This document shows, piece by piece, positions 27,984 through 55,484 of a stretch of DNA of 64,000 nt; the stretch's first letter is position 1, and every line of letters begins with the position of its first letter. The notes below the pieces were generated by a model. The model was not told the origin of the DNA. It did not search any database and saw nothing but the letters and a program-made list of their open reading frames with translations. The DNA comes from an uncultured Planctomycetia bacterium. Lineage in GTDB: Bacteria > Omnitrophota > Gorgyraeia > Duberdicusellales > Duberdicusellaceae. The DNA lies in contig CAZWJT010000003.1 in assembly GCA_964634935.1 (NCBI GenBank), forward strand, positions 52,323-116,322, in the 5' to 3' direction. The position numbers and the translations under genes were made by a program.

Positions 27984-29049
27984 AAGGAGTCGCCGCATGG
28001 GGCGAAAAGCGAAATCAAGAAAGTCAGAATTTTCTATCGAAAGGCGTAGGATCGGAGAAAATTTTCCGCCTTTCGTGATCGCTGAGGTTGGGATTAACCA
28101 CGAAGGAGATTATAAAAAAGCATTACGTCTTATTGATGCCGCTGTTTGGGCTAAGGCAGATTGCGTCAAATTTCAATGCCATATTACCGATAAAGAAATG
28201 ATTCCTACCGATATGAAACCCGGGAAGATTTCTTCGGAACGCCTCTGGGATATCATACGGCGATGTGAATTGGACGAAGATACAGAAGAAAGGCTCAAAA
28301 AGTATTGTGAAAAGAAAAAGATTATGTACCTTTCTACCCCGTTTTCCCGAGAAGCGGCAGACCGTCTGGATAAACTAGGGGTGAGCGGGTTTAAGATTGG
28401 TTCGGGAGAATGCAACAACTTTCCGCTTGTAGAACATATCGCTCAGAAGAGAAAACCAGTTATTCTTTCAACTGGGATGAACACGGTAGCTTCAATTATG
28501 CAAAGTGTAAAGATCTTGCGATACTTCAAAGTTCCTTTTTTGCTCATGCATTGTGTTTCTCGGTATCCCACGCCTTATCAAGACTTGCGTCTGGGAGCAA
28601 TTCAAGAACTGCAGGATATATTCCGTGTCCCTGTGGGCTTAAGCGACCATTCACACGGTATCTACACATGTTTAGGCGCCGTTGCTTTGGGCGCTTGTGC
28701 GCTCGAAAAACATTTTACTATTACCCGTTCCTGGCCTGGCCCGGACATTCCTCTTTCTATCGAGCCACACGAACTGCAACAATTGGTCATTGGCTCGCGG
28801 GCTGTCTGGCAAGCGCTTGGAGGACATAAGGGTATTCAGAAAGAGGAAAAACCGGTGATCGATTTTGCCTATGCTTCGGTTGTCACGATACGGAAGATTC
28901 AGCAAGGCGAACCGCTCACCTTGGATAATATCTGGGTAAAAAGGCCTGGTACTGGAGATTTCTTGGCCAAAGATTTTTCTCGGATTCTTGGAAGGAAAGC
29001 AAGGCGTCACCTTGAAGAGTCTGTGCAACTCAAGAAGGGCGATGTCTGA
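27973..29049 (+). CDS. nonulosonic acid synthase (NeuB/LegI/PseI family) with C-terminal SAF domain
   Basis: FVIAEVGINHEGD, KFQ, KIGSGE NeuB motifs plus about 70 aa C-terminal antifreeze-like SAF domain. Confidence 0.85.
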   Translation: MSGKRSRRMGRKAKSRKSEFSIERRRIGENFPPFVIAEVGINHEGDYKKALRLIDAAVWAKADCVKFQCHITDKEMIPTDMKPGKISSERLWDIIRRCELDEDTEERLKKYCEKKKIMYLSTPFSREAADRLDKLGVSGFKIGSGECNNFPLVEHIAQKRKPVILSTGMNTVASIMQSVKILRYFKVPFLLMHCVSRYPTPYQDLRLGAIQELQDIFRVPVGLSDHSHGIYTCLGAVALGACALEKHFTITRSWPGPDIPLSIEPHELQQLVIGSRAVWQALGGHKGIQKEEKPVIDFAYASVVTIRKIQQGEPLTLDNIWVKRPGTGDFLAKDFSRILGRKARRHLEESVQLKKGDV

Positions 29050-29959
29050 CAGAACCTGTGTAGTCATTACTGGCAGTTCTGGTTTTCTCGGCCGGAATTT
29101 TATAGATGAATTAATGAGGAGTTCAGATATCGGCATTTTGGCTCTTGACCAAGTCAATAACCTTCCGGTTACGAATCGTAGCGTGCAATATTTCCGGTGT
29201 GATCTTCTCTCTTCCGGGGATATTTCTAACGTTCTTGATTTTCTTCGCAAATCTCAATATAAAGAAATTTATCTCGTCCATCTTGCTGCCGTTACTCATT
29301 CCTCCTGTTACAGCGAGAAAGAGTTGCGTGAGATGAATGTGCGGTTACTGCAAAATACATTGGCGCTTGCATCCCTCAAAGAGGTAAAGAAGTTCGTCTT
29401 TTCTTCATCCGCCCTTGTTTATGGGACAAAGTATCCAGAATGTATTACTGAAGATTTTGCTCTTGCGCCAGAAAATGCATATGCGCAAGCCAAGCGGGAC
29501 TGCGAAGAATATATCCTCGGAAAAAGCGTGAACTTTCCCCAGAGTATCATTCTGCGGTTTACGAATATTTATGGATTAGGCATGAGTCCCTCCAGTGTAA
29601 TTGCCACAGTTGAAAAACAACTACGGAATAACGAGCTTGCTTTACGTGAATATATGAGTGTTCGGGATTTTCTTTACATCCAAGATGCTATTGCTGCGTT
29701 GCGGTTGTCAGTCTTTTCAGCTTGTTCCTTTCAGATATATAATGTTGGTACTGCGCAAGGTCATTCAATTTATGAGCTTGTAAAACTCATGGCTGGACTG
29801 ACAGGCAAACAAAATTTATTTGGCGCTATCCAGAAACCCCTGCAGCATCATGAGAAACTGGTTGTTTCTCATGATCGTATTACTCATGATCTGCGTTGGA
29901 TGCCAGAATATTCCTTGGAACAGGGATTGCAAAAAATGGTACATTCCGCATATGCCTAG
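29042..29959 (+). CDS. NAD-dependent sugar epimerase/dehydratase-family protein
   Basis: VVITGSSGFLGRNF and YAQAK; ATG 29042 overlaps NeuB stop. Confidence 0.7.
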   Translation: MSDRTCVVITGSSGFLGRNFIDELMRSSDIGILALDQVNNLPVTNRSVQYFRCDLLSSGDISNVLDFLRKSQYKEIYLVHLAAVTHSSCYSEKELREMNVRLLQNTLALASLKEVKKFVFSSSALVYGTKYPECITEDFALAPENAYAQAKRDCEEYILGKSVNFPQSIILRFTNIYGLGMSPSSVIATVEKQLRNNELALREYMSVRDFLYIQDAIAALRLSVFSACSFQIYNVGTAQGHSIYELVKLMAGLTGKQNLFGAIQKPLQHHEKLVVSHDRITHDLRWMPEYSLEQGLQKMVHSAYA

Positions 29960-31139
29960 ACGAAAGATAGCAATTTTTACTGGTAACCGCGCTGAGTATG
30001 GGTTGCAATTTCCGATTATCAAAGCGATTTCTCAGAGCAGCAGATTACGTTATTTTCTGTTAGTTTCCGGGGCGCATCTTGATGAAAAATTCGGGTATAC
30101 CAAGCGCGAGATAGAAAAAGATGGATTTTTGGTATATCGTGAAGTACGGGCAGAAGTAAGGGCTGATGATCTTTATTCAGCTACCCAAGCAGTCGGGCAG
30201 ATTATTTTAAGTTTGAGCCGAGTTCTTGCCGAAATCAAGCCGGATATACTCATTGTTTATGCGGATCGTTTTGAAGGATTAGCTGCGGTCGTTGCAGGCA
30301 GCCAGATGGGCATTCCTGTTGCGCATATCGAAGGAGGGGATATTACTGAGGGGGGGGCGCTCGATGATTACGTGAGACATGCGATGACCAAGCTTTCACA
30401 TCTGCATTTTACGACAAACATCCAAGCGGCAGAGCGAATCGCTCGATTAGGAGAAGAAAAATGGAGGATTTTCAATGTGGGTTTTCCGGTAATTGACCTT
30501 ATTCGTCAGAAAAAATTTGCCGCTCCCCAAGAAATTACTGAACGATTTTCCATTATTCCAGAAAAGCCAACAGTACTTTTTACCCAGCATTCAGTTACCA
30601 CAGAACTTGACCAAGTCACCCAACAAATAAGGCCTTCCCTGGATGCGCTTTGTTTCTGGGCACAGAAAGGAATTCAAGTGGTGATAACGTATCCGAATAA
30701 TGATGCCGGTGGCAGGCGCATTATCCATGAGTTAGAAGGGCTTAAGAGGAAAAATATCCCTACGCTCAAAATATATCCACATTTGGGACGTTATTATTAT
30801 CATGGTATACTATATCTCTGCGGTAAAGAAGGCCTTGGGGTTTGTGTCGGTAATTCTTCGAGCGGGATAAAAGAAACCCCGGCATTTGGCTGTCCGTTTG
30901 TTAATATTGGAAGCCGGCAGCAAGGGCGGTTACGTTCGACAAATGTACTTGATGTGGCGTATAGCTCTGCACAGATTAGAAAAGCAATCGGGAAAAGCAT
31001 TTTCGATAAAGAATTTCGTAAAAACTGTGCTCGGTGTAAAAATCCATACGGTACGGGGCATGCTGGAGAGAAAATAACCAACGTGCTGGCGCAGATTTCT
31101 TTAGGCAGGCGATTATTGCAGAAGAAGATTACCTACTAA
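29952..31139 (+). CDS. UDP/GDP-N-acetylglucosamine 2-epimerase (hydrolysing), NeuC/LegG-like
   Basis: KIAIFTGNRAEYGL start, HIEGGD, NIGSRQQGR motifs of NeuC family; start moved to ATG 29952. Confidence 0.8.
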   Translation: MPRRKIAIFTGNRAEYGLQFPIIKAISQSSRLRYFLLVSGAHLDEKFGYTKREIEKDGFLVYREVRAEVRADDLYSATQAVGQIILSLSRVLAEIKPDILIVYADRFEGLAAVVAGSQMGIPVAHIEGGDITEGGALDDYVRHAMTKLSHLHFTTNIQAAERIARLGEEKWRIFNVGFPVIDLIRQKKFAAPQEITERFSIIPEKPTVLFTQHSVTTELDQVTQQIRPSLDALCFWAQKGIQVVITYPNNDAGGRRIIHELEGLKRKNIPTLKIYPHLGRYYYHGILYLCGKEGLGVCVGNSSSGIKETPAFGCPFVNIGSRQQGRLRSTNVLDVAYSSAQIRKAIGKSIFDKEFRKNCARCKNPYGTGHAGEKITNVLAQISLGRRLLQKKITY

Positions 31140-31143: not shown

Positions 31144-32214
31144 ATGATTCGGATAGAAAAGATTGCGAAATTTATTGTGCGTGAAGATGCTTCTTTACGG
31201 GAAGCCCTCAGGGTCATTGACCAAAATAAAGAAGGGATTGTTCTTGTGGTTGACGCAAAAAACCGTCTCTGTGGGATTATTACTGATGGCGATGTCCGTC
31301 GGTTTATCTTAAAGAACGGGGATATTTCCACGCGGTGTGATACGATTATGAACAAAGAGTACTTTTATAGTACGCATGGTTCGCCCGAAGAAGCGAAAAA
31401 ACTCATGACCCGGCAAAGGATTCGTCATATACCTTATCTGGGTAAAGATAAAAAACTACTTTCACTCTTTATTTCCGATACGATTTATGAATTAAAAGAA
31501 AGCGTAGCCGCCGTGGTGATGGCGGGCGGGGAAGGTGCCAGAGTGCGTGAAATTTCGCAAGGCATTCCTAAGCCGCTGCTGAAAATTAAAGAAAAACCAA
31601 TTCTTGAAGAGGTTTTACTTGGCTTCAAACGGCATCATATCAATCGAATCTTTCTTGCGCTCAACTATCGGGCCAAAGACTTCAAAGATTATTTCCGCGA
31701 TGGGTCATCGCTCGGTTTAGATATTACCTATCTTGAAGAAAAGAAAAAGCTTGGAACAGCAGGGGCTCTTTCGCTGTTACCGAAAGCGTTACCCTATGAA
31801 ACCCTTTTAGTGATGAACGCAGATGTGCTGACTGCAACGAATCTCACAAGTCTTATCCAGTTTTATCGCGACCACCATCTTTTAATGTGTGTTGCGGCCA
31901 AGGAGTATGTTTTTGATATTCCTTTCGGAATTTTTGAAGTAGCGAATGGGCACCTCGTGGGTTTAAAAGAAAAACCTTCTGAGCGGTTTTTTTGTAATGC
32001 AGGTATCTATGTGCTGGATAAACAGGTTCTTGAGTTTATCCCAAAAAATAAACGATATGACATGACAGATTTAATCAAGTTGCTTCTGGGGAAATCGTTA
32101 CCCATTGGTGCTTTCCCGCTCTACGAGTATTGGATTGATATCGGCAACAAGGGAGATTTCCACCGCGCGGGAAATGAATATGACAAAATTTTTAAACGCC
32201 GGGAATATGAGTAA
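31144..32214 (+). CDS. CBS-domain-containing sugar-phosphate nucleotidyltransferase (PtmE-like)
   Basis: Two N-terminal CBS repeats followed by AVVMAGGEGARVREISQGIPKPLL nucleotidyltransferase motif. Confidence 0.75.
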   Translation: MIRIEKIAKFIVREDASLREALRVIDQNKEGIVLVVDAKNRLCGIITDGDVRRFILKNGDISTRCDTIMNKEYFYSTHGSPEEAKKLMTRQRIRHIPYLGKDKKLLSLFISDTIYELKESVAAVVMAGGEGARVREISQGIPKPLLKIKEKPILEEVLLGFKRHHINRIFLALNYRAKDFKDYFRDGSSLGLDITYLEEKKKLGTAGALSLLPKALPYETLLVMNADVLTATNLTSLIQFYRDHHLLMCVAAKEYVFDIPFGIFEVANGHLVGLKEKPSERFFCNAGIYVLDKQVLEFIPKNKRYDMTDLIKLLLGKSLPIGAFPLYEYWIDIGNKGDFHRAGNEYDKIFKRREYE

Positions 32215-33205
32215 CTTTTGGAAAAAAAAGAAAGTTTTTGTTACCGGAGCGGATGGATTTATCGGCTCGCATCTTGTTGAGCGGCTCGTCCAGAATGGTG
32301 CTTCTGTGCGTGCTTTTGTTTTGTATAATTCATTTGGTAACTGGGGTTGGCTGGAATCTTTCCAAAAAAGATGTCTTCAGAAAATTGATGTTTATCCTGG
32401 AGACGTTCGCGACGCAGCTTCACTGGATAAGGCCCTCGGCGGTTCAGAGATCGTTTTCCATCTCGCAAGCTTAATCGCGATTCCTTATAGTTATTCTGCT
32501 CCGGAAAGTTACCTCGATACGAATGTCAAGGGAACTCTGAATATCCTGCAAGCGGTTCGTAAACACGGAGTGCGGCGGGTTATCCATACGTCGACGAGCG
32601 AAGTATATGGGACTGCGCAGTACGTGCCGATTGATGAGCAGCATCCGCTGAATCCCCAGTCTCCCTATGCAGCATCCAAGAGCGCCGCTGACGCGCTTGC
32701 GTTGAGTTTTTATCATTCTTTTGGTGTCCCGGTAGTCATTGCGCGGCCATTCAATACTTTTGGTCCCAGACAATCAGCGCGCGCTGTTATTCCCGCAATT
32801 ATTTCCCAGATTTACGCTGGGAAGAAAACAATTGAACTTGGAAGCCTTGCTCCTACCCGGGATTTCAATTATATTGCTAATACGGTTGATGCGTTTCTCG
32901 CCTTGGGAGAGGCGTCGGCTGGTTTTGGCGAGGTATTCAATATCGGGAGCGGGGGAGAGATATCGATAGGCACCCTTGTATCTCTCATTCAAAATATTAC
33001 CGGTTCCAGAGTCAATATACGTCAGACAAATATGCGCAAGCGCCCTGTGGCGAGTGAAGTCCAGCGCTTGCTTTGTAATGCTGACAAGATAAAAAACTAT
33101 TGCGGTTGGCAGCCAGAGGTGGCGCTCAAAGAAGGACTTACGCGTACCTGCAAGTGGATTCAGCAGAATAGAGAGAAGTTTAAACCGGAAATTTACCATA
33201 CATGA
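32207..33205 (+). CDS. NAD-dependent nucleotide-sugar dehydratase/epimerase
   Basis: VFVTGADGFIGSHL, YAASK; ATG 32207 overlaps previous stop. Confidence 0.75.
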   Translation: MSNFWKKKKVFVTGADGFIGSHLVERLVQNGASVRAFVLYNSFGNWGWLESFQKRCLQKIDVYPGDVRDAASLDKALGGSEIVFHLASLIAIPYSYSAPESYLDTNVKGTLNILQAVRKHGVRRVIHTSTSEVYGTAQYVPIDEQHPLNPQSPYAASKSAADALALSFYHSFGVPVVIARPFNTFGPRQSARAVIPAIISQIYAGKKTIELGSLAPTRDFNYIANTVDAFLALGEASAGFGEVFNIGSGGEISIGTLVSLIQNITGSRVNIRQTNMRKRPVASEVQRLLCNADKIKNYCGWQPEVALKEGLTRTCKWIQQNREKFKPEIYHT

Positions 33206-34758
33206 ACGCGATTATTTTTACTCAATCGGGAACATTGCGCATGTTTTATCCTTTAGCCCTCCGTTTACAACGGGAGAAAGTTCTTGATACGGTTGGTTTT
33301 TATGTAACCAATTCGCTGTATTTCGAGAATTTTTCGCGCGATAATCCAGAGTTTTTGCAGTTTCCGCTACTCAAGGAATGGGAAATTATTCGACACGGGA
33401 AAAGTAAGAAAGTGGATGTAAAGACGCTGCGTATGTATGAGAAGAAATACGGCGATCCTTTCTTGGCAAGCGCCATTGTTGCTGACCGGCGTTTGTATTT
33501 AGGAAAATTCAATAATCTTTACCACGATGAGAAACAAACGTTTACTGATGGTGAACGTATGGGTATCTTGCAGGAATCGCTCGAGCGCCTTGAATCTTTT
33601 TTTGACCAGATAAAACCAAATTTCATATTGAGTTTTATCTGTGTTACCATCGGAGAATACTTAGGTTATAGGATTGCGGCCCAAAGGAAAATCCAGTTTC
33701 TCAATCTTCGTCCTACTCGAATCAAGAATTACATCTACGCAGCAGACACTATTTATGAACCGCCCGCTTCATTCTCGGCTGGGTATGAACGTTTTCGCCT
33801 GAGTGATTGCGCGGTTGAGGTAAAAAAAGAGGCCGAGGATTTTATGAGAGAATTTCAAGTACGAGAAACATTGTATGAAGGAGTAAGTGGTTCCCAGGGC
33901 AAGCCAAAAAGAAGAAAACGATGGTTTCGCGGTCTCAAGAATAAATTCTTGGGATGCGCGCGGCTTTTGAGGAAAGAATTTCATTACCGCTTGGGAAGAT
34001 ACCAGAGCGATACCCACGTGAAAGGATTTATTTTCCCCGCGCTCTATAAGAATATTTTCGTTCCTTTGAGGATATGTAAGATTCACTCTCTCTTGAAAGA
34101 CCGCTATATTCAGGAAGAAAATCTTGCGGATAATCAGTATGCATTTTATCCTTTGCATAAAGAACCCGAAGTAACTCTGCAAGTTTATAATCGGTATTAT
34201 TTGAACCAGATAGAAGTGATCCGGAATATCGCCCAAAGTCTGCCTTGTGGCATGAGGCTATTTGTAAAAGAACATCCTGTGAGCGTCGGGTATCGCGATA
34301 GCGGCTATTATCAAAAGATTCTGTCGATTCCCAACGTTTCTCTTATTCATCCGCAGGTAAAGAGCAGAATCGTCATTGAAAATGCGCAGCTTGTAGTCGT
34401 GCTCGGCGGTACTGTCGGGTTTGAAGCTTTGCTTTTGAAGAAACCGGTTATTGTTTTGGGGAATGCGCTCTATGGATTAATGCGCACTTCCTCGTTACGA
34501 AAAGTAGAGTCCCCAACCGCTTTAAGCAGCGCCATAGTATCACTTTTGGAAACATACCAATATGACCAGCAAGAACTCCTGCGTTACATTTGTTATATCA
34601 TGCATCATGCTACGAGGGTTGATCTCTATGCAAGATTATTGCACAGAAGCGATGCTGCCGCCCCCGACAATAATGAGAACTTTGCAGAACAGATCCAACG
34701 TTTGGCCGGTTACCTTACAGGCAAACTATTGGGGAATAAAGTTTTTATCGGTGGATAG
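33202..34758 (+). CDS. capsule-polysaccharide-biosynthesis (KpsS/KpsC-type) family transferase
   Basis: C-terminal half (YPLHKEPE...LFVKEHP...VVVLGGTVGFEALLLKKPVIVLG) resembles the Capsule_synth family of beta-Kdo transferases. Confidence 0.55.
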   Translation: MNAIIFTQSGTLRMFYPLALRLQREKVLDTVGFYVTNSLYFENFSRDNPEFLQFPLLKEWEIIRHGKSKKVDVKTLRMYEKKYGDPFLASAIVADRRLYLGKFNNLYHDEKQTFTDGERMGILQESLERLESFFDQIKPNFILSFICVTIGEYLGYRIAAQRKIQFLNLRPTRIKNYIYAADTIYEPPASFSAGYERFRLSDCAVEVKKEAEDFMREFQVRETLYEGVSGSQGKPKRRKRWFRGLKNKFLGCARLLRKEFHYRLGRYQSDTHVKGFIFPALYKNIFVPLRICKIHSLLKDRYIQEENLADNQYAFYPLHKEPEVTLQVYNRYYLNQIEVIRNIAQSLPCGMRLFVKEHPVSVGYRDSGYYQKILSIPNVSLIHPQVKSRIVIENAQLVVVLGGTVGFEALLLKKPVIVLGNALYGLMRTSSLRKVESPTALSSAIVSLLETYQYDQQELLRYICYIMHHATRVDLYARLLHRSDAAAPDNNENFAEQIQRLAGYLTGKLLGNKVFIGG

Positions 34759-34765: not shown

Positions 34766-35941
34766 ATGAAAAAGATAGCGATAGTAGTAACATCACGAGC
34801 GAGCTACGCGCGCATCAAGAGCGTGCTCGCAGCGATTAGGGAAAACAAAGATCTCGAGCTTTTTTTAATCGGAGCCGCGTCACTCATACTCGATAAATAC
34901 GGAAATGCTGCGGAGATTGTTGAGCGAGACGGTTTTACTATTCATCAGAAGGTGTATTTGATTATCGAAGGAGAAAACCCCACGACTATGGCAAAAAGCG
35001 TTGGAGTTGGGGTGATGGAGCTTGCTACACTTTTCGACAATGTGAAGCCAAACATTGTTATTTCAATCGCTGACCGGTTCGAAACTATCTGTACCGCTAT
35101 TGCCGCGGCTTATCTCAATATTCCAGTTGCTCACATCCAGGGTGGAGAGCTTTCAGGATCGATTGATGAAAAAGTGCGCCATGCCGTCACAAAATTTTCT
35201 TCCGCCCATTTCGTTGCCAATCAAACAGCCAAACGAAGATTGCAGATGATGGGAGAAGCGGAAAATTCAATATTTATCACCGGTTGTCCCTCGATAGATT
35301 TAGCAAAAGACATACAGAAGAAGCATGCGTATATGACAACGGACTATTTATTTTCAAAGTATGGCGGTTTAGGCGACCAGGTGAATATCGCGGATAATTT
35401 TGTTGTTGTTCTGCAACATCCGGTTACCACGGAAGTTGCGGATGGCTACGAGCAAATGAATCAGACCTTGTACGCGGTGCAGCAAACAGGAATTCCTGCT
35501 ATTATCCTTTGGCCAAACGTTGATGCTGGTTCTGATGCAGTATCCAAGGCAATCCGTAGTTTCCGCGAGCGTGTAAAGCCAAGAAACATGCATTTTTTCA
35601 GGAATCTTACTCCTGAAGATTTTCTTGCCCTCCTGATGCAATCAAGCTGTCTTCTGGGAAATTCCTCGGTGGGAATACGTGAATGTTCTTTCTTGGGTGT
35701 TCCGGTTATCAACATTGGGAGTCGCCAGAGAGACCGCGAGCGAGGCCCGAATGTGATTGATGTGGAGCATAATAAAGATGAGATCATCGAAGCCTTGAAG
35801 AAACAGTTACTCTGCCGAAAGCCGTATTCCCCAGCGTTCATCTATGGAGAGGGTTGCGCCGGGAAAAAGATTGCGCAGATTTTAGCTACTCAAGATTTCG
35901 CAATTGAAAAAAGATTCGTTGATCATATCTGCGGAGAATGA
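34766..35941 (+). CDS. nucleotide-GlcNAc 2-epimerase (hydrolysing), second NeuC-like copy
   Basis: KIAIVVTSRASYARIKSVL, HIQGGE, NIGSRQRDR; start moved to ATG 34766. Confidence 0.8.
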   Translation: MKKIAIVVTSRASYARIKSVLAAIRENKDLELFLIGAASLILDKYGNAAEIVERDGFTIHQKVYLIIEGENPTTMAKSVGVGVMELATLFDNVKPNIVISIADRFETICTAIAAAYLNIPVAHIQGGELSGSIDEKVRHAVTKFSSAHFVANQTAKRRLQMMGEAENSIFITGCPSIDLAKDIQKKHAYMTTDYLFSKYGGLGDQVNIADNFVVVLQHPVTTEVADGYEQMNQTLYAVQQTGIPAIILWPNVDAGSDAVSKAIRSFRERVKPRNMHFFRNLTPEDFLALLMQSSCLLGNSSVGIRECSFLGVPVINIGSRQRDRERGPNVIDVEHNKDEIIEALKKQLLCRKPYSPAFIYGEGCAGKKIAQILATQDFAIEKRFVDHICGE

Positions 35942-35988
35942 CCAAGTTGGCACGAGGTTTTACGGGTAAGGAGATTTTCTAATACAAT

Positions 35989-36720
35989 ATGCAAATTCCC
36001 AAAAATATTCTTGCGATTATCCCGGCGCGCAAAGGCTCAAGAGGTTTGAAGGATAAAAATCTGTCTTTACTGGATAAGCATCCTTTGGTTGTCCATACCT
36101 TTGCTGCAGCAAGATCCTCAAAGTTGCTTACCAGGATGATTATGTCAACCGACGATTGTCGCATCGCTCAATTGGCATTACGACATGGGATAGAAGTTCC
36201 GTTTCTTCGCCCCAAATATCTGGCGTCTGACCGGGCAAAAAGCACAGATGTGGCGTTGCACGCGCTTATGCATGTGCAAAAGCATGAAGATTATTCTCCG
36301 GATCTGATTGTTTTGCTTCAGCCAACAGCACCGCTACGCACAGGAGCGCACATTGATGACGCAATACGGAAATTATGCGCACGCCGGGGCGATTCACTAG
36401 TCAGTCTTTGCAGATTATCCGAGCCGCACCCCTATAAGCTGAAACGCTTGAAAAACGGATTTGTTGTTCCATTCTTGACAGGAACCGACAGCACCGTCCC
36501 TCGCCAGCAGTTGCCAGAGGTGTACCGGCTGAATGGCGCAATTTATATTGTTACCCGCGAGGTTTTGCTCAAAGAGAAAAGTTTTTTTGGCACAAGAGTA
36601 ATCCCGTATTTTATGGAGGAAGATTTTTCCGTGAACATTGATTCCGGTTTTGATTTGCTTCTTGCTGAGGCAATATTAAAAAAAAGAAAGCAACGCCATG
36701 GAAAAAGCGTTTCGGTGTGA
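35989..36720 (+). CDS. nonulosonate cytidylyltransferase, second NeuA-like copy
   Basis: ILAIIPARKGSRGLKDKNL motif. Confidence 0.8.
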   Translation: MQIPKNILAIIPARKGSRGLKDKNLSLLDKHPLVVHTFAAARSSKLLTRMIMSTDDCRIAQLALRHGIEVPFLRPKYLASDRAKSTDVALHALMHVQKHEDYSPDLIVLLQPTAPLRTGAHIDDAIRKLCARRGDSLVSLCRLSEPHPYKLKRLKNGFVVPFLTGTDSTVPRQQLPEVYRLNGAIYIVTREVLLKEKSFFGTRVIPYFMEEDFSVNIDSGFDLLLAEAILKKRKQRHGKSVSV

Positions 36721-37531
36721 AATTATAGCCGAAGTTGCCTCGAATCATTCAGGAAACTTAGCTATTGCCAAAAAATTTATACAGGTTTCTGCGCGCTTGG
36801 GAGTTGATTATGTCAAATTTCAATCTTCTCGCTATGAAGATTTAGTGCGCAAGAACGATCCGCAGGCAGAATGGATAAAACGGACGTCACTCTCCGAGGA
36901 AGATCATCTATTTTTAATAGATGTTTGCAGGCGATCGGGGGTCTCTTTTTTGACAACCTGTTTTAGCTTAAGCAGAGTTTCTTTTCTCGGTTCGCTTGGC
37001 TTACGCGCTATTAAGGTAGCAAGCCCAGATCTTTTAAGCTTTGCGATGATTGAAAAATTGGCGCAATTCTTTCCCCGAATTTTTATTTCAACCGGCATGC
37101 ATTCAATCAAAGAAATCAAAGCCGCTATTAAATTTTTGTTAACCAATAAAATACCCGCAGTGCTTTTGTATACAGTATCCTTGTACCCTACCCCTTTGGA
37201 AAAATGTTTTATGCGTAAATTTCTTTGGCTGAAAGACCACTATCCTTTGGTCGGTTACAGCAACCATACAGCAACCATAACCCCGGCAAAATTTGCCATG
37301 GACCATGGCGCAAGCGTCATTGAAGCGCATATGAAACTCAGTGATTCTGGTCCTGGCAGGGTGACCCCGTGGGATATCAGTCCATCCGATTTTTCCGAGA
37401 TTATCAAGTACCGCGCCATGTTGCGTGAGTTTCTCGGCAATGCGCAGTGGCTTGCCAGTGAAAATTATCTTTTTCCGGAAGAGAGAAAAGCGAAACGGCG
37501 TTTTGTCGGGCGCTGGGGGGATAATGTCTAA
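36698..37531 (+). CDS. NeuB-family synthase lacking the C-terminal SAF domain
   Basis: IIAEVASNHSGN, KFQ, TIM-barrel body only (277 aa vs 358 aa for the upstream NeuB). Confidence 0.6.
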   Translation: MEKAFRCEIIAEVASNHSGNLAIAKKFIQVSARLGVDYVKFQSSRYEDLVRKNDPQAEWIKRTSLSEEDHLFLIDVCRRSGVSFLTTCFSLSRVSFLGSLGLRAIKVASPDLLSFAMIEKLAQFFPRIFISTGMHSIKEIKAAIKFLLTNKIPAVLLYTVSLYPTPLEKCFMRKFLWLKDHYPLVGYSNHTATITPAKFAMDHGASVIEAHMKLSDSGPGRVTPWDISPSDFSEIIKYRAMLREFLGNAQWLASENYLFPEERKAKRRFVGRWGDNV

Positions 37532-37533: not shown

Positions 37534-38373
37534 ATGGATTTATCAGATATCCAGAAAGAGCAACAGTTCAGCAGTTTTTCTTTCAGCGCATATCCTGCAA
37601 AAACACGATATCATGGAGATACCGCTGCACACTACAATATCCGCCGGGAGAAAAATCCTAAGTGGCGGAGAGAATTCGCAGCGCTTCGCAATATTCTTTC
37701 CGCCTGTCGTTCCGATTCGTCAATTTTGGACATCCCCGTGGGCACGGGACGTTTCATTCCGCTCTACAACAGCGGTTTTAGGAAAGTTTTCGGTTTTGAT
37801 GTATCTTTGGATATGGTGCGGCAGGCAATCGCTGGATACCCTGCTGGGAAAGTTTATTTCGGGGTAGGGGAAGCAGAAAAGATACCTTTCTGTGATAAAT
37901 CAATAGATTATCTTGTTTCCATCCGTTTCCTAAACTGGATTTCCACGGAGCATCTTCGGCACATCCTGCAGGAATATACACGGGTGGCTCGTCTAGGAAT
38001 TATTGTAAGCATCCGCGTTGAAGAAGCGTCAAAGGGAATAAGTGTTCTTTTCTGGTCTATCTACAATCTGATCCCCGCGGTTGTTCATGGAATTTTTCAG
38101 TTTCGGAAAACATTGTCGCGCTTCAAGAGTAGATTGCGAAAAATGAAATCTGCAGAGGTTTCTTGGGCATCTCAAGAAAACACGAAAATATCAAATGGAT
38201 ACGCGGTCCACAAGGGAGCAGATATTTTAGATATATTTTCTGCCTTGCAGCTTACTATCGAACGAGTTATCGACGTAGATGTTCCTTTTTCATATCGCAC
38301 GCGGACAATAAAACCATATCGATTTTATTTTTTGAAGTTTTCTGATGGTAAAAATTGTTCTTCATTAACATGA
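37534..38373 (+). CDS. class I SAM-dependent methyltransferase
   Basis: ILDIPVGTGRF motif I. Confidence 0.6.
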   Translation: MDLSDIQKEQQFSSFSFSAYPAKTRYHGDTAAHYNIRREKNPKWRREFAALRNILSACRSDSSILDIPVGTGRFIPLYNSGFRKVFGFDVSLDMVRQAIAGYPAGKVYFGVGEAEKIPFCDKSIDYLVSIRFLNWISTEHLRHILQEYTRVARLGIIVSIRVEEASKGISVLFWSIYNLIPAVVHGIFQFRKTLSRFKSRLRKMKSAEVSWASQENTKISNGYAVHKGADILDIFSALQLTIERVIDVDVPFSYRTRTIKPYRFYFLKFSDGKNCSSLT

Positions 38374-39164
38374 TTATTGAGCTTGCGGGTTTGTCCGGAG
38401 CCGGGAAGACAACGGCGTGCCAGATCATTGCTAGGACTCATGCGACAAGCAAGTTTATTCTAACCGCGCAATGGTACCGTTGGCTAAAGAAATTCAAAAT
38501 GGACAAGATTTTTTTAATTTTAACCACGGTTTATTTTCGTAAGATTGTACGGATTTTTTATCTCTACTCGCAACGCATACATCACAAGACTTTTTTTCAG
38601 TGGATTATCCATGTATTCAAAATATGCTTTCGGGCGCGCGCGGACCGTTATCAAAATCAAGCAGAGCCAGTTGCCGATATTCTCTTGCTGCTCAACAGAA
38701 TCATCGTTATCTACAGCATCGGATCATTAGAGACTTTTTTTCGCGGAAAACCTTTGCTGATCGATGATGGATTCATCCAACGAAGCGCAAGCATCTGGTT
38801 GCGTACCCCGCAAGAATTACAATCCGGAGTGCTTTCGGTTTATCGCGACTGTTTGCCATCCAAGATACGCTGTATTTTGATGGATTGTGATCCGGCTGAA
38901 GCCTTACAGAGGTCGAGGATCAGAGGGGACGAGCGCGCAGTCTTTAAGAGTTTCTCACAGAATTTTGAAAAGAAAGATTTATTTGATTCCTATAATGATA
39001 TGGCAGCGGTATTAAACTCATTGCAGACAGCTCGGCGGTTCCGGAACATCTCCCGTATATCGGTAGCAAACTCCGATAGTCCGCAGGTTCAAGCTGAGCT
39101 TGTGTGGAAAGTCGCCCAGCAACTTTCTGGAAACAATGACCTTCTTTGCTGGGCTTGTTGTTGA
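38370..39164 (+). CDS. P-loop NTPase-fold protein (kinase- or sulfotransferase-like), function unknown
   Basis: ELAGLSGAGKTT Walker A near N-terminus; ATGA-coupled start 38370. Confidence 0.35.
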   Translation: MIIELAGLSGAGKTTACQIIARTHATSKFILTAQWYRWLKKFKMDKIFLILTTVYFRKIVRIFYLYSQRIHHKTFFQWIIHVFKICFRARADRYQNQAEPVADILLLLNRIIVIYSIGSLETFFRGKPLLIDDGFIQRSASIWLRTPQELQSGVLSVYRDCLPSKIRCILMDCDPAEALQRSRIRGDERAVFKSFSQNFEKKDLFDSYNDMAAVLNSLQTARRFRNISRISVANSDSPQVQAELVWKVAQQLSGNNDLLCWACC

Positions 39165-39219: not shown

Positions 39220-40092
39220 ATGGAACAGTTGCAGACAGTCAGCGTGATTATCCCGACCTTTCACCGTTACAAATATCTGGGGGATCTTCTCACGATGTTA
39301 TCAGATCAGACGGTCAAGCCTCTGGAAATAATTATTGTAGATCAGACGCCGGAGCAGGAGCGTCCAAAAGACTTTTATGAGCAATTTCAGGGGCATCTGC
39401 CGATCCGGAGAATTGATATCCAAAAGGCATCTCTTACGTATCCCAGGAATTTGGCGGCTCTCAGAGCGCTCGGTGCGTTTCTTTTATTTCTCGATGATGA
39501 TATCGTTATCGGGAAAGATTTTATTGAGGCGCATTTGAAGGTTATGAGAGAACAAAACGTTGATGTAGTAAATGGAGCGGTAACCCGAAAAGATCAGTTA
39601 CCTAAGGGTTATCCTTGGAATGTCAATGTACTTGACCCGGTGCGCTTTTTTCTTGCTGCTCCTAACTATCAGTGGGAGGGAATGATGCTAGGAGTTTCTT
39701 CATGCAATGTACTTATCAAGAAAGATTCCTTTCTCGCGGTCGGAGGATTTGATGAATATCTTCCACGGATGGTCGATTTTGAGTTGGGGTATCGTTTATT
39801 CCGGCATGGAGCAAAGATCTATTTTAGCTATAAGCCATTTGCCCGCCATCTGCGCGGGGAAGGGGGAAGCCGAAAGAATCCCAAGCACTATAATAAATTA
39901 GTTTCGGCTTTCTACATCCATTACAAGCATTTTCCTGGCTGGATCACTACGCAGTTTATGCTGAAACATATTATGACCTGGAAAATTTTCTTTAAGCCGT
40001 GGTTTCTGGTTATTCTTTGGATGGCTATGCGGCGGGCCAGGGTGCTCTTGAGGAGTTCAAAGGCCAAAAGAATAGCGGATTTGCATGGTTAA
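39220..40092 (+). CDS. family 2 glycosyltransferase
   Basis: VSVIIPTFHRYKYL and FLDDDI (DxD). Confidence 0.8.
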   Translation: MEQLQTVSVIIPTFHRYKYLGDLLTMLSDQTVKPLEIIIVDQTPEQERPKDFYEQFQGHLPIRRIDIQKASLTYPRNLAALRALGAFLLFLDDDIVIGKDFIEAHLKVMREQNVDVVNGAVTRKDQLPKGYPWNVNVLDPVRFFLAAPNYQWEGMMLGVSSCNVLIKKDSFLAVGGFDEYLPRMVDFELGYRLFRHGAKIYFSYKPFARHLRGEGGSRKNPKHYNKLVSAFYIHYKHFPGWITTQFMLKHIMTWKIFFKPWFLVILWMAMRRARVLLRSSKAKRIADLHG

Positions 40093-41533
40093 GAGCCCTC
40101 AGAAAACAATTCTCATTGCTACGCATCAAGGGTTTACCACGCGGTATCTTCTTCAGACGGATATTTTTCGGTTCCTGAAAAGCTATGGGAATCGAGTGGT
40201 GATTCTTTCTCCGAATAGCACAGATGAGAGTTTTCGCGCTGATTATGGCTCAGCCCAAGTGTCGATAGAACAATTCAATTATGAGGCAATCAACAAGGTT
40301 AGACAAAAGAAGCTTTACGCATTTTTTATTCAAATCAAGCGGTTTATCTTTCCCGGTGGTTGTGATTGTGCTACGCTGCATGATAAAGAAAGAGTCATCC
40401 GTTATCGCGTCAAGCATTTGCCTTGGATAAATCGTATTGGGGCGCTTATGCCTCTTTGGATTGCTTTTTTGTTGCGTAAGAGCGGAATGCTCCGGAAGAT
40501 ATTTCTTGGGCTCGAATCACTCGTTTTTTTTAAAGAATACCATGCAGCAGTATTCAATCGATATAAACCAGATATGCTTATTCTTGCTGATTTAGGAACT
40601 ATCGATATCAGCAATTTCCTCATGTATGAAGCACGGAAAAGGCGCATTCCGATTTTATCAATGATCTTAAGTTGGGATAATCTTACTGCAAAAGGCATAG
40701 GGAGTTTTAAGCCGGATTATGCCGTAGCCTGGAACGCAAACATGCGGCAGGAGCTTATTGCGTATCATGGAGTTTCTCCTCAGAATATTTTTGTTGGAGG
40801 CGTTCCTCATTTCGATGGGTACTTTCGTAAAGACGGTGTTATGCCAGAAGAAAATTTTCGTGAAATTTTCTCTCTCCACAAGACAGAAAAAATCATTTTC
40901 TACGGGACCGCCTCTCCTTCTAGTTTCAAAGAGAATGAGCGGATGGTTTTACTTTTGGCGGACGGCATCAGAAATAAAAAGTTTTCTTTTCCAGCCAAGC
41001 TGATCGTTCGCTTGCATCCGGCATATTTTATGAGAAAAAAAAATGCGCACAATGATGAGTTTGCTTCGATCGAGAAGATTTCACGGGAGCATAGCGACAT
41101 AGTTCGTTTGAATTTTCCCAAACTTATTCCTCGTACGGTGGGGTTTGAGTTACCCATCCAGGACCAGTATCTGTTAGGGTCGATCTTGCGATACTCGAAT
41201 ATTCTTATCACGCAATTTTCAACGCTTATGTTGGAAGCCGCTATTTTTGATACTCCGATTGTGAATATCGGGTTCGATAATTTTAGGAACATCGAAATGA
41301 AAAGTTCGGAGCTCTATTGGCGGAATCACCTGCGAAGAGTCCTCGAAACCGGTTTTGCCCGTACGGCAGAAACCGAAAAAGAGCTTATCGACCTTATCAA
41401 TCTATACGTAAGAGACCCGCAGCTTGACAGCGAAAAGCGTAAATTGATTTGTGAGCAGGAATGCAGCGTTTATGCGGGTAAAGCGGGGGAGACGATTGCT
41501 TCGTATATACAGCTGCTTCTGTCAGAAATGTAA
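40085..41533 (+). CDS. large GT-B-like transferase of uncertain family (TagF/glycerophosphotransferase-like?)
   Basis: 482 aa, no TM; weak resemblance to CDP-glycerol glycerophosphotransferase C-terminal region. Confidence 0.3.
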   Translation: MVKSPQKTILIATHQGFTTRYLLQTDIFRFLKSYGNRVVILSPNSTDESFRADYGSAQVSIEQFNYEAINKVRQKKLYAFFIQIKRFIFPGGCDCATLHDKERVIRYRVKHLPWINRIGALMPLWIAFLLRKSGMLRKIFLGLESLVFFKEYHAAVFNRYKPDMLILADLGTIDISNFLMYEARKRRIPILSMILSWDNLTAKGIGSFKPDYAVAWNANMRQELIAYHGVSPQNIFVGGVPHFDGYFRKDGVMPEENFREIFSLHKTEKIIFYGTASPSSFKENERMVLLLADGIRNKKFSFPAKLIVRLHPAYFMRKKNAHNDEFASIEKISREHSDIVRLNFPKLIPRTVGFELPIQDQYLLGSILRYSNILITQFSTLMLEAAIFDTPIVNIGFDNFRNIEMKSSELYWRNHLRRVLETGFARTAETEKELIDLINLYVRDPQLDSEKRKLICEQECSVYAGKAGETIASYIQLLLSEM

Positions 41534-41544: not shown

Positions 41545-42132
41545 ATGGAAAGATTTCTGAATCATTCATACGATACAAAAAAAAGGCTATTTTCTTATTG
41601 GCATCAGATGGATGAAATAGAAAAAACGCAGCCTGAGAGTGTTCTTGAGATAGGCATAGGCAGTGGTTTTTTAAAGAAGTACTTGGATGGAAAATACAAG
41701 TATCATACGCTTGATATCGCGCAAGATCTCCATCCTGATTGTGTCGGATCAGTTCTTCATTTGCCGTTTCTTAGCCAGAGTTTTTCGGTTGTTCTGTGCT
41801 GTGAAGTGTTGGAGCACTTGTCCTTTGATCTTTTTCCTTCTTCGTTGCAAGAATTACGCCGGGTAGCGCGGAAAAGAATTATACTCTCTCTGCCTGACCG
41901 GCGTCCATTCCTTTCTCTACAGCTGCCACTTTTGGGAAAACAGGCCATTTACTCCCCATTCTTTACTCCTCCGCACACTGTTTCCATCCGTGAGCATCAG
42001 TGGGAAGTCAATACGCGGAAGGTTTCACTACAAGATATCATCGTATGTTTCGAGCAGGCGCGCCTGAAGCTGATAAGAACCTACCAGGTATTTGAAAATT
42101 ACAAACATAGGTTTTTTATATTGGAAACGTAG
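41545..42132 (+). CDS. class I SAM-dependent methyltransferase
   Basis: VLEIGIGSGFL motif I, Methyltransf_11-like length. Confidence 0.65.
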   Translation: MERFLNHSYDTKKRLFSYWHQMDEIEKTQPESVLEIGIGSGFLKKYLDGKYKYHTLDIAQDLHPDCVGSVLHLPFLSQSFSVVLCCEVLEHLSFDLFPSSLQELRRVARKRIILSLPDRRPFLSLQLPLLGKQAIYSPFFTPPHTVSIREHQWEVNTRKVSLQDIIVCFEQARLKLIRTYQVFENYKHRFFILET

Positions 42133-42148
42133 CGCTCCCAAAGAGTCT

Positions 42149-43492
42149 ATGAATATCATTTTTTTTATCAGAAGGTTTAACGACATCGATCATATTGTTC
42201 CCATTGTCTATCGGATTGCGAAGGATCGTTCCGCAATTCCGTATGTATTTTCGCTCAATCCCGCACTCGATATCGAGCATGATTTTCGGCTACGGTTTTT
42301 ACAAGATCAATATCAGGTCAAGGTTGATTTTGTCTACAATGCGTATCGGGATAGTTTTTGCTATGCGCTTGGGTCATTTTTAGTATCGAGCCGGTTTGTC
42401 CGGATGCGCATGGCGGATTGGTCAATGTGTCTGAAAAAAATATTTATAAAGCAATGTTTAGATTCTTATTTTAAAAATTTATTTTTCATATTTCTCTTCC
42501 CTTGCTGGTTGTTATACAACAAGACGCTGTATCCTTTTTTCTGCAGGCAGGGGCTTACAAGAATCTTTTCTGGAAACTGGGGCATAAAAATTCTCAAGAA
42601 GTACCAGCCCAAAGTTCTTGTTTTTGATCGGGTTAAGAAAGAACAGTATGTGACACAGTCTCTTGTCGATGCCGCAAAAAAATTAAAAATTCCTCTGATT
42701 GCCGTTCCGCATGGCTTAAATCTTATTGTCAACCTCCTGCAGCGGGATAGCGATGTCCAGAGAAACGAACCGACTGACTATGGCGAGAAATCAGGATTTT
42801 TTGATTTTCTTATTGTTCAATTTGCTGCTTACAAGAATTTGCTTGTTCAGGCAGGGATTGATCCGCAAAGAATAAAAGTATTGGGTAGTACGCGTTTTTG
42901 CCGCGAGTGGAGGAAAGTATATCATAGCATCGCCCCGGCATATGAAAATGTTCTTCCTTCTTCTCCGGGAAAACTGAAGGTCGTATTTATGGAGTACCCG
43001 TACATGTATCGTATCCATAAAGACGTGGTTGCTGAGACCATGCTTTCTGTATCAAAGCTGCCATTTATCCATCTCGTCATAAAACCACACACCCGCTCAA
43101 ATAAACTCTATGCGCAGGAATTTGAGTCAGGCGGTAAGATAACGATTGCTTACGATATTCCTTCCGTTACGCTGTGCACATGGGCTGATGTGGTGGTTGG
43201 TACTACCTCAAGTATTTTGTTAGAGCCCTTGTTAAATAATAAAGTTTTGTTGTATCCAAAGTTTTTTCATGAGAATATAATGTTGTTTGAAAAGATGAGA
43301 GCTTGTTGGGTTGTTCAGACGGCTCAGGAACTGCTCCAGGCACTCAAGGAGCTCTCTCGGGATTCGCGCCAACGCCCCTACTTACAAACAGACGTTGATT
43401 CGTTCATTACCGAGGTTGTGTACGGCGGGGTACAAAAGCGGGATGTTTTGGGTGAGTATGTGGATTTTATCCGGGCTGTCGCAGAACCGTAG
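42149..43492 (+). CDS. hypothetical protein, possible GT-B-like transferase
   Basis: About 448 aa; C-terminal region (VVVGTTSSILLEPLLNNKVLLY) resembles GT-B C-domains; start uncertain (42092 or 42149). Confidence 0.3.
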   Translation: MNIIFFIRRFNDIDHIVPIVYRIAKDRSAIPYVFSLNPALDIEHDFRLRFLQDQYQVKVDFVYNAYRDSFCYALGSFLVSSRFVRMRMADWSMCLKKIFIKQCLDSYFKNLFFIFLFPCWLLYNKTLYPFFCRQGLTRIFSGNWGIKILKKYQPKVLVFDRVKKEQYVTQSLVDAAKKLKIPLIAVPHGLNLIVNLLQRDSDVQRNEPTDYGEKSGFFDFLIVQFAAYKNLLVQAGIDPQRIKVLGSTRFCREWRKVYHSIAPAYENVLPSSPGKLKVVFMEYPYMYRIHKDVVAETMLSVSKLPFIHLVIKPHTRSNKLYAQEFESGGKITIAYDIPSVTLCTWADVVVGTTSSILLEPLLNNKVLLYPKFFHENIMLFEKMRACWVVQTAQELLQALKELSRDSRQRPYLQTDVDSFITEVVYGGVQKRDVLGEYVDFIRAVAEP

Positions 43493-46588: not shown

Positions 46589-46589
46589 T

Positions 46590-49185: not shown

Positions 49186-49195
49186 GAGGTATAAG

Positions 49196-49963: not shown

Positions 49964-49974
49964 TAATCTGCTCT

Positions 49975-53759: not shown

Positions 53760-53768
53760 GGAGAAATC

Positions 53769-55471: not shown

Positions 55472-55484
55472 TTTGGTAATTCCC

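Follow-up and report, generated by a model that had tools for sequence, protein, structure and literature searches.

The window, by which we mean the whole 64,000-nucleotide stretch of contig CAZWJT010000003.1 that was analysed, contains a surface-polysaccharide locus of ~39 kb (20.7-59.5 kb of the window) that carries two nonulosonic-acid (NulO) gene sets, referred to here as set 1 and set 2. The principal features of the locus are as follows.

26419-27138, + strand: NeuA1, set 1 cytidylyltransferase (TIGR03584, 119 bits, below cutoff).
27973-29049, + strand: NeuB1, set 1 canonical synthase, with its SAF domain coded at 28813-29046 (PF03102, 261.6 bits; PF08666).
29952-31139, + strand: NeuC1, set 1 LegG-like hydrolysing 2-epimerase (TIGR03568, 363 bits).
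31144-32214, + strand: PtmE-like CBS-nucleotidyltransferase, set 1 (CBS and NTP_transferase domains).
32207-33205, + strand: LegB-type 4,6-dehydratase, set 1 (TIGR04180 LegB, 470.1 bits; cutoff 475).
33202-34758, + strand: Capsule_synth (KpsC/KpsS-like) protein of 518 aa (PF05159, E 1.7e-11).
34766-35941, + strand: NeuC2, hydrolysing UDP-GlcNAc 2-epimerase type, 391 aa (TIGR03568, PF02350).
35989-36720, + strand: NeuA2, CMP-nonulosonate synthetase (cytidylyltransferase), 243 aa (PF02348).
36698-37531, + strand: NeuB2, SAF-less NeuB-family synthase, 277 aa (PF03102 only).
37502-37525, + strand: codons for the C-terminal motif F269-V-G-R272-W-G-D-N276 of NeuB2, a motif found clade-wide.
37534-38373, + strand: class I SAM methyltransferase, 279 aa (PF13649, PF08241).
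38370-39164, + strand: P-loop NTPase / kinase-like protein (sub-threshold matches to AAA_18, Thymidylate_kin and AAA_33 only).
40085-41533, + strand: TagB/TagF-like GT-B protein, 482 aa (PF04464, E 1.4e-11).

It had originally been predicted that a second, paralogous NeuC/NeuA/NeuB set follows the first, and the three ORFs of set 2 bear this out: identities between the paralogs are 28% for NeuB, 31% for NeuC and 34% for NeuA, and both of the peptides quoted to illustrate their divergence are present in the translations. The genes of set 2 are tightly packed, with NeuA2 and NeuB2 overlapping by 23 nt and the methyltransferase gene starting 3 nt past the NeuB2 stop; scanning 33.0-39.5 kb for promoters and terminators gave counts equal to the shuffled expectation. 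An identical NeuB2 protein occurs in an independent assembly of sequencing run SRR12133403.

NeuB2 matches PF03102 at 150.6 bits (cutoff 22.1) over model positions 2-239 of 241 and has no match to the SAF profile PF08666, while NeuB1 carries both domains, as had been claimed for the first synthase. Against the equivalog models NeuB2 scores below cutoff (166.3 vs 399.65 for TIGR03569, NeuB; 114.5 vs 340.25 for TIGR03586, PseI). We note that NeuB1, which matches the Neisseria meningitidis enzyme (NmNeuB, 1XUU) with 333 bits, also falls slightly under the NeuB_NnaB cutoff of 399.65, with 365.3. When the SAF domains of NeuB1 and NmNeuB were used as tblastn queries against the whole window, the only match was that of NeuB1 itself at 28813-29046, and the three frames read 3' of 37531 contain the methyltransferase and no SAF. 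The claim that NeuB2 lacks a SAF (antifreeze-like) domain is thereby upheld, and a check for a frameshift uncovers no SAF-encoding segment hidden downstream of the gene. NeuB2 is without this domain and so has no R314-bearing domain of the sort that, in NmNeuB, caps the active site of the partner subunit.

The AF2 monomer model of NeuB2 has a pLDDT of 93.9, and a Foldseek search with this model placed 6NCS and NmNeuB on top (TMq 0.82-0.83), with NeuB, PseI and SpsE enzymes spanning TMq 0.76-0.83 at 21-26% identity. DAHP synthases and KDO8P synthases rank from 13 onward (TMq 0.56-0.69, identity 11-14%). The concern that the short protein might come from an unrelated PEP-utilising family is settled in favour of NeuB by fold and sequence alike. 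Specifically, NeuB2 shares with NmNeuB (SiaC; 1XUU, 1XUZ) the TIM-barrel fold (TMq 0.83), the metal-binding His pair and the PEP/sugar-binding Glu, Lys, Ser, Thr, Gln and Tyr residues, and it conserves the equivalents of NmNeuB E25, K53, Q55, T110, F112, K129, S132, S154, Y186, S213, H215, E234 and H236. NeuC and NeuA genes accompany both synthases. Across 20 clade members the His pair H190/H211 and residues E12, E209, K40, K106, Q42, T87, F89, S109, S131, Y163 and S188 of NeuB2 are invariant or nearly so. The two enzymes differ in that they are only ~26% identical and in three pocket positions: E134 of NmNeuB is conservatively replaced by D111 (in nearly all clade members), N184 is replaced by S161, and the position of D247 is variable. 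The substrate specificity of NeuB2 may therefore differ from that of NmNeuB.

Contrary to the statement that NeuB2 ends right after the TIM barrel, the protein continues for ~30 residues past the last barrel helix, and these form two short helices followed by the terminal motif F269-VGRWGDN-276. Of 74 related loci, 72 encode a protein with a motif of the form (F/Y)xG(R/K)(W/F/L)GxN at its very C-terminus, and the remaining two are cut by contig ends. This GRWGDN-type tail is absent from the canonical enzymes. The counterpart assigned to the tail differs between two alignment methods: hhalign, in a global and collinear alignment, sets it on the linker and first SAF strand of canonical NeuB, whereas MAFFT sets R272 of NeuB2 on R314 of NmNeuB (FVGRWGDN against WVKRPGNG). 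The NmNeuB sequence used for tblastn, MAFFT and hhalign agrees with PDB alignments over residues 22-276 save at one residue (2WQP) and has the expected residue at every numbered position, F288 and R314 included. We read the homology of the tail from the collinear hhalign alignment and take the equivalence of R272 and R314 as a functional hypothesis only. On this reading the SAF domain would have been reduced, in the SAF-less clade, to a stub of ~30 residues ending in the motif, and the invariant basic residue of the tail (R272) may replace the SAF arginine (R314 in NmNeuB) in closing the sugar pocket. Two earlier studies describe the SAF arginine as essential in canonical enzymes (PMC7591256, PMC8208679).

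SAF-less NeuB proteins were already known. In a 2021 survey (Microb Genom, PMC8208679), ~30% of 7,714 NeuB-like sequences are without SAF, forming whole branches from environmental organisms and often carrying E134D, a description that NeuB2 fits; the accessible part of the survey does not define the present clade, its terminal motif or its NeuC/NeuA/TagF-like neighbourhood, and reports no biochemical test. One such protein has been crystallised, the 'N-acetylneuraminic acid synthetase' of Leptospira borgpetersenii (6NCS, a 290-residue chain), which is a barrel without SAF and is the best solved match of NeuB2 in both sequence and fold, although the two are only ~25% identical. The 6NCS protein appears to be without the clade motif, because its profile alignment ends 12 positions before the terminal motif of the clade, and a related synthase of L. 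interrogans has a different C-terminal domain, phosphatase- or endonuclease-like (PMC3438082). Our literature searches returned no published activity for the 6NCS protein. They also covered assayed SAF-less NeuBs and the NulOs of Omnitrophota, Patescibacteria or Saccharibacteria, and on these the 2021 survey was all that they returned.

What extends beyond a single locus is that NeuB2 belongs to a conserved and widespread clade. We define this clade as proteins of ~265-290 aa that consist of the NeuB domain only and carry the motif no more than ~5 residues from the C-terminus, and NeuB2 fits this definition. Confirmed matches, counted with one genome per species, place the clade in at least 392 species genomes from many phyla, including Omnitrophota, Planctomycetota, Patescibacteria and DPANN archaea. 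Nearly all of 95 homologs are 249-291 aa long with the NeuB domain alone. Of ~5,000 NeuB-family clusters formed at 50% identity, the 150 best include ~45 short forms in which the match spans the tail. The short NeuB2 is a member of this conserved clade and not a truncation product.

The neighbourhood of the short NeuB is likewise conserved. Among 41 well-flanked loci (at least 5 kb on each side; all neighbour counts refer to the flanks of the locus and not to the rest of those genomes), 37 encode a NeuC2-type epimerase no more than 5 kb from the short NeuB, NeuC and NeuA are both nearby in 31, a TagF-like gene in 18, a DegT aminotransferase in 2 and a full-length NeuB in only 4; with the distance set at 8 kb, a full-length NeuB is found in 10 of 74 loci and a TagB/TagF-like homolog in 33 of 74. 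Because the short NeuB so regularly has a NeuC2-type partner, most often NeuA as well, and so rarely a full-length NeuB, the trio of set 2 appears to be a self-sufficient cassette. Complete or near-complete genomes that have it include CP070806.1 (Phycisphaerales), JAXGYF010000001.1 and CPR genomes. Synteny is closest with L002, an Omnitrophota MAG, which also has orthologs of the methyltransferase and, alone among the loci, of the P-loop NTPase / kinase-like ORF. In 29 of 74 loci the gene next to the short NeuB codes for a methyltransferase of a different and unrelated family. The KpsC/KpsS-like gene adjoins the cassette in L002, L004, L007-L009 and L060, which are the closest relatives. Between NeuC and NeuB the closest relatives have a gene for a 2-hydroxyacid dehydrogenase, which stands outside the pathway steps proposed below.

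Comparison with solved structures separates the two sets. NeuC2 matches TIGR03568 (NeuC_NnaA) with 371 bits (cutoff 235.9) over model positions 1-365 of 365, and its closest solved structure is the epimerase domain of human GNE (4ZHT, 235 bits, against 184 bits for LegG, 5ZLR). For NeuC1 the closest solved structure is the GDP/UDP-diNAcBac 2-epimerase 5XVS (204 bits, against 170 bits for GNE). NeuA2 matches PF02348 (E 3.6e-19) and, under the cutoff of 205.7, TIGR03584 PseF (122.8 bits); its closest solved structure is the N. meningitidis CMP-Neu5Ac synthetase 1EYR (136 bits), and that of NeuA1 is 6IFD (92 bits). Set 1 comprises a LegC/PseC-type aminotransferase, a PtmF-like oxidoreductase, NeuA1, a PtmA-like SDR, NeuB1, NeuC1, PtmE and LegB, and equals the Campylobacter jejuni legionaminic pathway (LegB, LegC, LegG, LegI, LegF, PtmE, PtmA, PtmF) gene for gene, save for the acetyltransferase: the locus ORFs of at least 150 aa include no LegH-type hexapeptide acetyltransferase. 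Given the reciprocal pattern of best solved matches (NeuC1 with LegG, NeuC2 with GNE, NeuA2 with CMP-Neu5Ac synthetase), set 1 is, as judged by these comparisons, a legionaminic-acid-type pathway, and the product of set 2 is most likely a neuraminic-type acid. The suggestion that the locus makes two different NulOs is likely on the same grounds, together with the LegB, PtmE-like, LegC/PseC-type and PtmA-like members of set 1.

We therefore consider as the best overall explanation, with a probability of about 0.6, that the locus encodes two independent NulO pathways and that set 2 (34766-37531) is a self-contained NeuC2/NeuB2/NeuA2 cassette, independent of the set 1 pathway, in which a conserved SAF-less NeuB2 uses R272 of its tail in place of the SAF arginine. 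In such a pathway NeuC2 would hydrolyse and epimerise UDP-GlcNAc to give ManNAc, NeuB2 would form a neuraminic-type acid by condensing ManNAc with phosphoenolpyruvate in its metal-dependent TIM barrel, and NeuA2 would activate this acid with CTP. The KpsC/S-like and TagB/F-like proteins that flank the cassette are the likely users of the resulting CMP-sugar, and the neighbouring methyltransferase may modify the sugar. The 518-aa KpsC/KpsS-like protein, with a weak match to the KpsC structures 8FUW and 6MGC, is a candidate CMP-ulosonate-dependent transferase. The 482-aa TagB/TagF-like protein is a candidate nonulosonate transferase: it has a partial match to the BFO_1060-family glycosyltransferase domain (NF046086, E 1.2e-12, 47.6 bits; cutoff 200), and it shares this domain and PF04464 with the TagB-like Pse/Leg transferases of Tannerella forsythia (Tanf_01245, BFO_1060), which are documented genetically (PMC5420450).

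Set 2 might instead draw on set 1, taking its 2,4-diacetamido-6-deoxy-sugar nucleotide and converting it to a legionaminic stereoisomer such as epi-Leg, so that the locus would make two di-N-acetylated NulOs. The cassette does adjoin a Leg-type set, both here and at four other loci (L002, L027, L061 and L067), the match of NeuC2 to LegG is still substantial in bits, and the pocket substitutions of NeuB2 leave its specificity open. However, at most loci the cassette stands without a 4,6-dehydratase or an aminotransferase, LegB-like proteins (at least 55% identity) being found in only 2 and DegT proteins being as scarce as stated above, and NeuC2 is clearly nearer to GNE than to LegG, the opposite being true of NeuC1. 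We regard this as unlikely, though it survives better than the other alternatives.

Somewhat less probable again is that NeuB2 is a Neu5Ac-9-phosphate synthase of the animal or archaeal style that acts on ManNAc-6-phosphate, with a kinase step before it and a phosphatase step after it. The 2021 survey (PMC8208679) links E134D with eukaryotic and archaeal synthases and places the residue near the phosphate site of ManNAc-6-P. The substitution is nearly invariant in our clade, the best solved relative of NeuC2 is the human GNE epimerase domain, the P-loop kinase-like ORF lies two genes 3' of NeuB2, and a HAD hydrolase gene is present at 57093-57740. Against this, the 74 loci show no conserved kinase or phosphatase beside the cassette, the P-loop ORF is found again only in the closest syntenic MAG and its family assignment is under every Pfam threshold, and the HAD gene is 20 kb off in a separate module.

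A further alternative is that the short NeuB does not act autonomously, either because a full-length NeuB such as NeuB1 pairs with it as a heterodimer and supplies the SAF domain in trans, or because it is a regulatory or inactive paralog. Both forms of NeuB are indeed encoded in the window, 8 kb apart, but a SAF profile search of 80 related loci found a stand-alone SAF ORF in none of them, its matches being full-length NeuBs only. This absence, the scarcity of full-length NeuBs beside the short form, the invariant catalytic residues and the clade's own C-terminal motif argue for an active, self-sufficient enzyme, and we judge dependence on a partner to be improbable, slightly more so than the phosphate pathway.

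That the 277-aa ORF is an artefact, whether a pseudogene or a NeuB shortened by truncation or a frameshift, is suggested by its length, characterised NeuB, PseI and LegI being ~70-80 residues longer, but is refuted by the data in hand: no SAF-like coding lies in any downstream frame or elsewhere in the window other than in NeuB1, hundreds of genomes, drawn from many phyla, encode proteins of this length with this C-terminus, an intact methyltransferase gene follows immediately, and the identical protein comes from an independent assembly.

Returning to the self-contained cassette, we advance a broader proposal only tentatively, as one that is possible but doubtful. The nonulosonate synthases of the SAF-less clade may form a minimal class of their own, with an arginine tail standing in for the whole SAF domain. 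Its cassette (a methyltransferase or 2-hydroxyacid dehydrogenase, short NeuB, NeuC, NeuA and a TagB/F-like transferase) might then make a sialic-acid-like sugar that is new to science and may be methylated, and this sugar would be the principal NulO in Omnitrophota, Planctomycetota, Patescibacteria and DPANN archaea.

Sugars of the sialic-acid type influence the make-up of cell surfaces and the way in which cells are recognised. To our knowledge, all that is understood of the mechanism of NulO synthases comes from two-domain enzymes, in which the SAF arginine is essential. The conserved clade described here works, or on the evidence of its sequences seems to work, without a SAF domain and does so in little-known lineages with small genomes, from which it would follow that the catalytic minimum of the family is smaller than has been assumed. 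The compact three-gene cassette could, moreover, serve in the prediction or engineering of sialic-acid-type sugar production.

Set 2 is, at a probability of about 0.6, an autonomous cassette for a CMP-neuraminic-type sugar, with a synthase that would use a short arginine tail instead of the C-terminal antifreeze-like (SAF) domain. The set consists of three closely packed open reading frames (ORFs), listed here with the upstream synthase paralog:

NeuC2, 34766–35941, plus strand: 391 aa, NeuC_NnaA equivalog (371 bits, cutoff 235.9)
NeuA2, 35989–36720, plus strand: 243 aa, CTP_transf_3 cytidylyltransferase domain
NeuB2, 36698–37531, plus strand: 277 aa, NeuB domain (PF03102, 150.6 bits) and no other domain
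NeuB1 (upstream paralog), 27973–29049, plus strand: NeuB and SAF domains

NeuA2 and NeuB2 share a 23-nt overlap; 3 nt past the NeuB2 stop begins a methyltransferase gene. The paralogs of sets 1 and 2 are only 28% (NeuB), 31% (NeuC) and 34% (NeuA) identical, which indicates old paralogs and excludes a recent duplication. The ORFs, domain matches and paralog identities thus bear out the original prediction of a second NeuC-NeuA-NeuB set.

Closest to the AlphaFold2 model of NeuB2 (mean pLDDT 93.9, pTM 0.89) are the SAF-less Leptospira structure 6NCS and meningococcal NeuB (TMq 0.82–0.83); PseI, SpsE and 3G8R score 0.76–0.81. DAHP and KDO8P synthases appear only from rank 13 (TMq ~0.56–0.69, 11–14% identity), which rules out an unrelated PEP-utilising family. 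NeuB2 and 20 clade members keep, in the numbering of N. meningitidis NeuB (NmNeuB), residues E25, N29, H30, K53, Q55, T110, F112, K129, S132, S154, Y186, S213, H215, E234 and H236. E134 is replaced by Asp in 19 of the 20 clade members, the D247 position is variable in the clade, and N184 is Ser in NeuB2, as it is in NeuB1.

Judged by its gene content, set 1 is legionaminic-type: it includes a LegB-type dehydratase (470.1 bits on TIGR04180, cutoff 475), a PtmE-like CBS-nucleotidyltransferase, a PseC/LegC-type aminotransferase, a PtmA-like SDR and a Gfo/Idh/MocA oxidoreductase. The ORFs of 150 aa or more in the locus (20669–59491) include no LegH/PglD-like hexapeptide N-acetyltransferase; the acetyltransferase aside, set 1 resembles a complete legionaminic-acid pathway. 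The closest solved match of NeuC1 is LegG (5XVS, 204 bits, versus 170 for human UDP-GlcNAc 2-epimerase, GNE), whereas that of NeuC2 is human GNE (4ZHT, 235 bits, versus 184 for LegG). NeuA2 is closest to N. meningitidis CMP-Neu5Ac synthetase (1EYR, 136 bits), and NeuA1 to 6IFD (92 bits, versus 64 for 1EYR). These reciprocal matches, and the fact that the cassette also occurs on its own, favour a route in which UDP-GlcNAc would be converted to ManNAc, ManNAc to a neuraminic-type acid, and this acid to its CMP ester. Along with the set 1 genes, they support the expectation that the locus makes two different nonulosonic acids (NulOs). In view of the E134D change, the variability at D247 and the accessory genes, the set 2 product could also be a different or modified one; that it is an epimeric legionaminic acid seems unlikely given the GNE match, and a route through ManNAc-6-P seems less likely still.

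ORFs were called in 80 related loci and matched against the proteins of the window. In a first count, of genes lying no more than 8 kb from the short NeuB (74 loci), NeuC2-type genes occurred in 57 loci, NeuA2-type in 47, TagF-like in 33, full-length NeuB in 10, Capsule_synth in 6 and DegT aminotransferase in 2. When only the 41 loci flanked on each side by at least 5 kb were considered, and only genes within 5 kb counted, NeuC2-type genes were found in 37, NeuC and NeuA together in 31, TagF-like in 18 and full-length NeuB in only 4, a rarity that makes a dependence of NeuB2 on NeuB1 quite improbable. A stand-alone SAF ORF was present in none of the 80 loci. Taken with the neighbour counts, this indicates that the trio is a recurrent cassette, independent of a nearby canonical synthase or diamino-sugar genes.

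Two more genes turn up repeatedly in these loci. In 29 of the 74, mostly from Patescibacteria and DPANN, the cassette comes with a class I SAM methyltransferase of ~275 aa, which lies directly upstream of the short NeuB in L049, L062, L052, L033, L060 and 24 others; sugar methylation may be a recurring theme. The window's methyltransferases at 37534–38373 and 41545–42132 are not orthologous to it. A D-2-hydroxyacid dehydrogenase, required by no standard NulO pathway step, lies inside the cassette in ~20 loci; in L003 (at 9043–9999), L004 and L006–L008, which are the closest relatives, it separates NeuC from the short NeuB, at a position where the window carries NeuA2. The most syntenic relative, L002 (Omnitrophota MAG JAHJGZ010000140.1), has a sulfotransferase ORF (PF13469, E 1.4e-26) that directly follows its short NeuB and precedes its methyltransferase; the window lacks an equivalent at this place and keeps a P-loop ORF of unclear family (38370–39164).

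The absence of the SAF domain, as originally predicted, was confirmed. A tblastn search of the window with the SAF parts of NeuB1 and NmNeuB found SAF coding only at 28813–29046, which is NeuB1 itself, and the three reading frames past 37531 contain methyltransferase only. Among 95 database homologs, all those at least 34% identical to NeuB2 consist of the NeuB domain alone, nearly all at 249–291 aa with a few shorter fragments; SAF-bearing proteins occur only at 33% identity or below. An independent assembly of run SRR12133403 gave the identical protein in unchanged gene order. In view of the typical length, the lack of downstream SAF coding and this second assembly, an artefactual short ORF can be dismissed. 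Scanning a single genome for each species yielded 392 confirmed matches, from Omnitrophota, Planctomycetota, Thermodesulfobacteriota, Verrucomicrobiota, many Patescibacteria (including Saccharibacteria), and DPANN and other archaea. An exhaustive profile search gave 5,148 NeuB-family clusters (50% identity) at E ≤ 1e-30, and ~45 of the best 150, by our count, are short forms matching to the profile end. NCBI labels clade members 'N-acetylneuraminate synthase family protein'. Fusions of the short-NeuB-type domain to other domains also occur, as in the proteins P0111 (963 aa) and P0193 (495 aa), locus L070 (5447–7090, 547 aa) and others.

NeuB2 does not, as had been supposed, end right after the barrel. 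In the model, two short helices (residues 249–253 and 260–269) follow, then F269-V-G-R-W-G-D-N276. Of 74 related loci, 72 have the motif (F/Y)xG(R/K)(W/F/L)GxN at the extreme C-terminus; contig ends cut off the remaining two. Global profile-profile alignment places the tail on the inter-domain linker and first SAF strand (NmNeuB 282–297), and deletion of the SAF domain after that strand would be the more parsimonious origin. In the MAFFT alignment, FVGRWGDN lies opposite the WVKR314PGNG loop instead, which is no more than a hint that the basic residue conserved in the tail may do the job of R314. This SAF arginine is reported essential in canonical enzymes, both in a 2021 survey (PMC8208679) and elsewhere (PMC7591256).

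Two proteins are reasonable candidates for CMP-sugar transferases, by analogy, because both enzyme types take CMP-linked donors. A 518-aa protein just upstream of set 2 carries a KpsC/KpsS Capsule_synth domain, a family that transfers Kdo from CMP-Kdo. A 482-aa protein (40085–41533) has a TagB/TagF domain and a partial match to the NCBIfam BFO_1060 family, whose Tannerella forsythia members are required to add Pse/Leg derivatives to the O-glycan (PMC5420450).

At one end of the wider polysaccharide locus are an initiating sugar transferase (20669) and a Wzz-like protein (24083), at the other an ABC transporter (57752); the locus as a whole has eight or more methyltransferase genes. Two C-methyltransferases and several O-methyltransferases belong to its CDP/dTDP-deoxysugar branch. 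This branch (43504–51006), unusually rich in sugar methylation functions, encodes a nucleotidyltransferase, a 4,6-dehydratase, a 3,5-epimerase, a reductase-like SDR, two C-methyltransferase-type proteins (PF08484), a CmcI/rhamnosyl O-methyltransferase and one further methyltransferase. In a possible third ulosonic-acid module (52006–57740) are encoded an HpcH/HpaI class II aldolase, a methyltransferase, a KdsB-like CMP-transferase (NF009905, 303 bits, above the cutoff of 255), a D-2-hydroxyacid dehydrogenase, a cyclase-family protein, an SDR epimerase and a HAD hydrolase, with no KdsA nearby; this content points to synthesis of a 3-deoxy-2-ulosonic acid by a pyruvate aldolase, followed by CMP activation. 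A PilZ-domain ORF (22430–22798, 122 aa; PF07238, E 4.9e-11) between the initiating sugar transferase and an aminotransferase may place the locus under c-di-GMP control. Three ORFs within or beside the locus, 42092–43492 (466 aa), 19870–20661 (263 aa) and 59565–60836 (423 aa), have no Pfam match at E ≤ 1e-4 or 1e-5.

According to the 2021 survey (PMC8208679), ~30% of 7,714 NeuB-like sequences lack SAF, forming whole branches from environmental organisms with frequent E134D, and their function is left open there. The Leptospira protein 6NCS, SAF-less like NeuB2, has been crystallised, and our literature search found no published activity for it; a related L. interrogans synthase carries another type of C-terminal domain (PMC3438082). 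The same search found no paper assaying a SAF-less NeuB or describing NulOs in Omnitrophota or Patescibacteria. SAF-less NeuBs are therefore already known as sequences, uncharacterised, and their existence is no surprise to a specialist; new here are the motif at the C-terminus, the conservation of the cassette, and the legionaminic versus neuraminic assignment of the two sets. The SAF-less clade is widespread.
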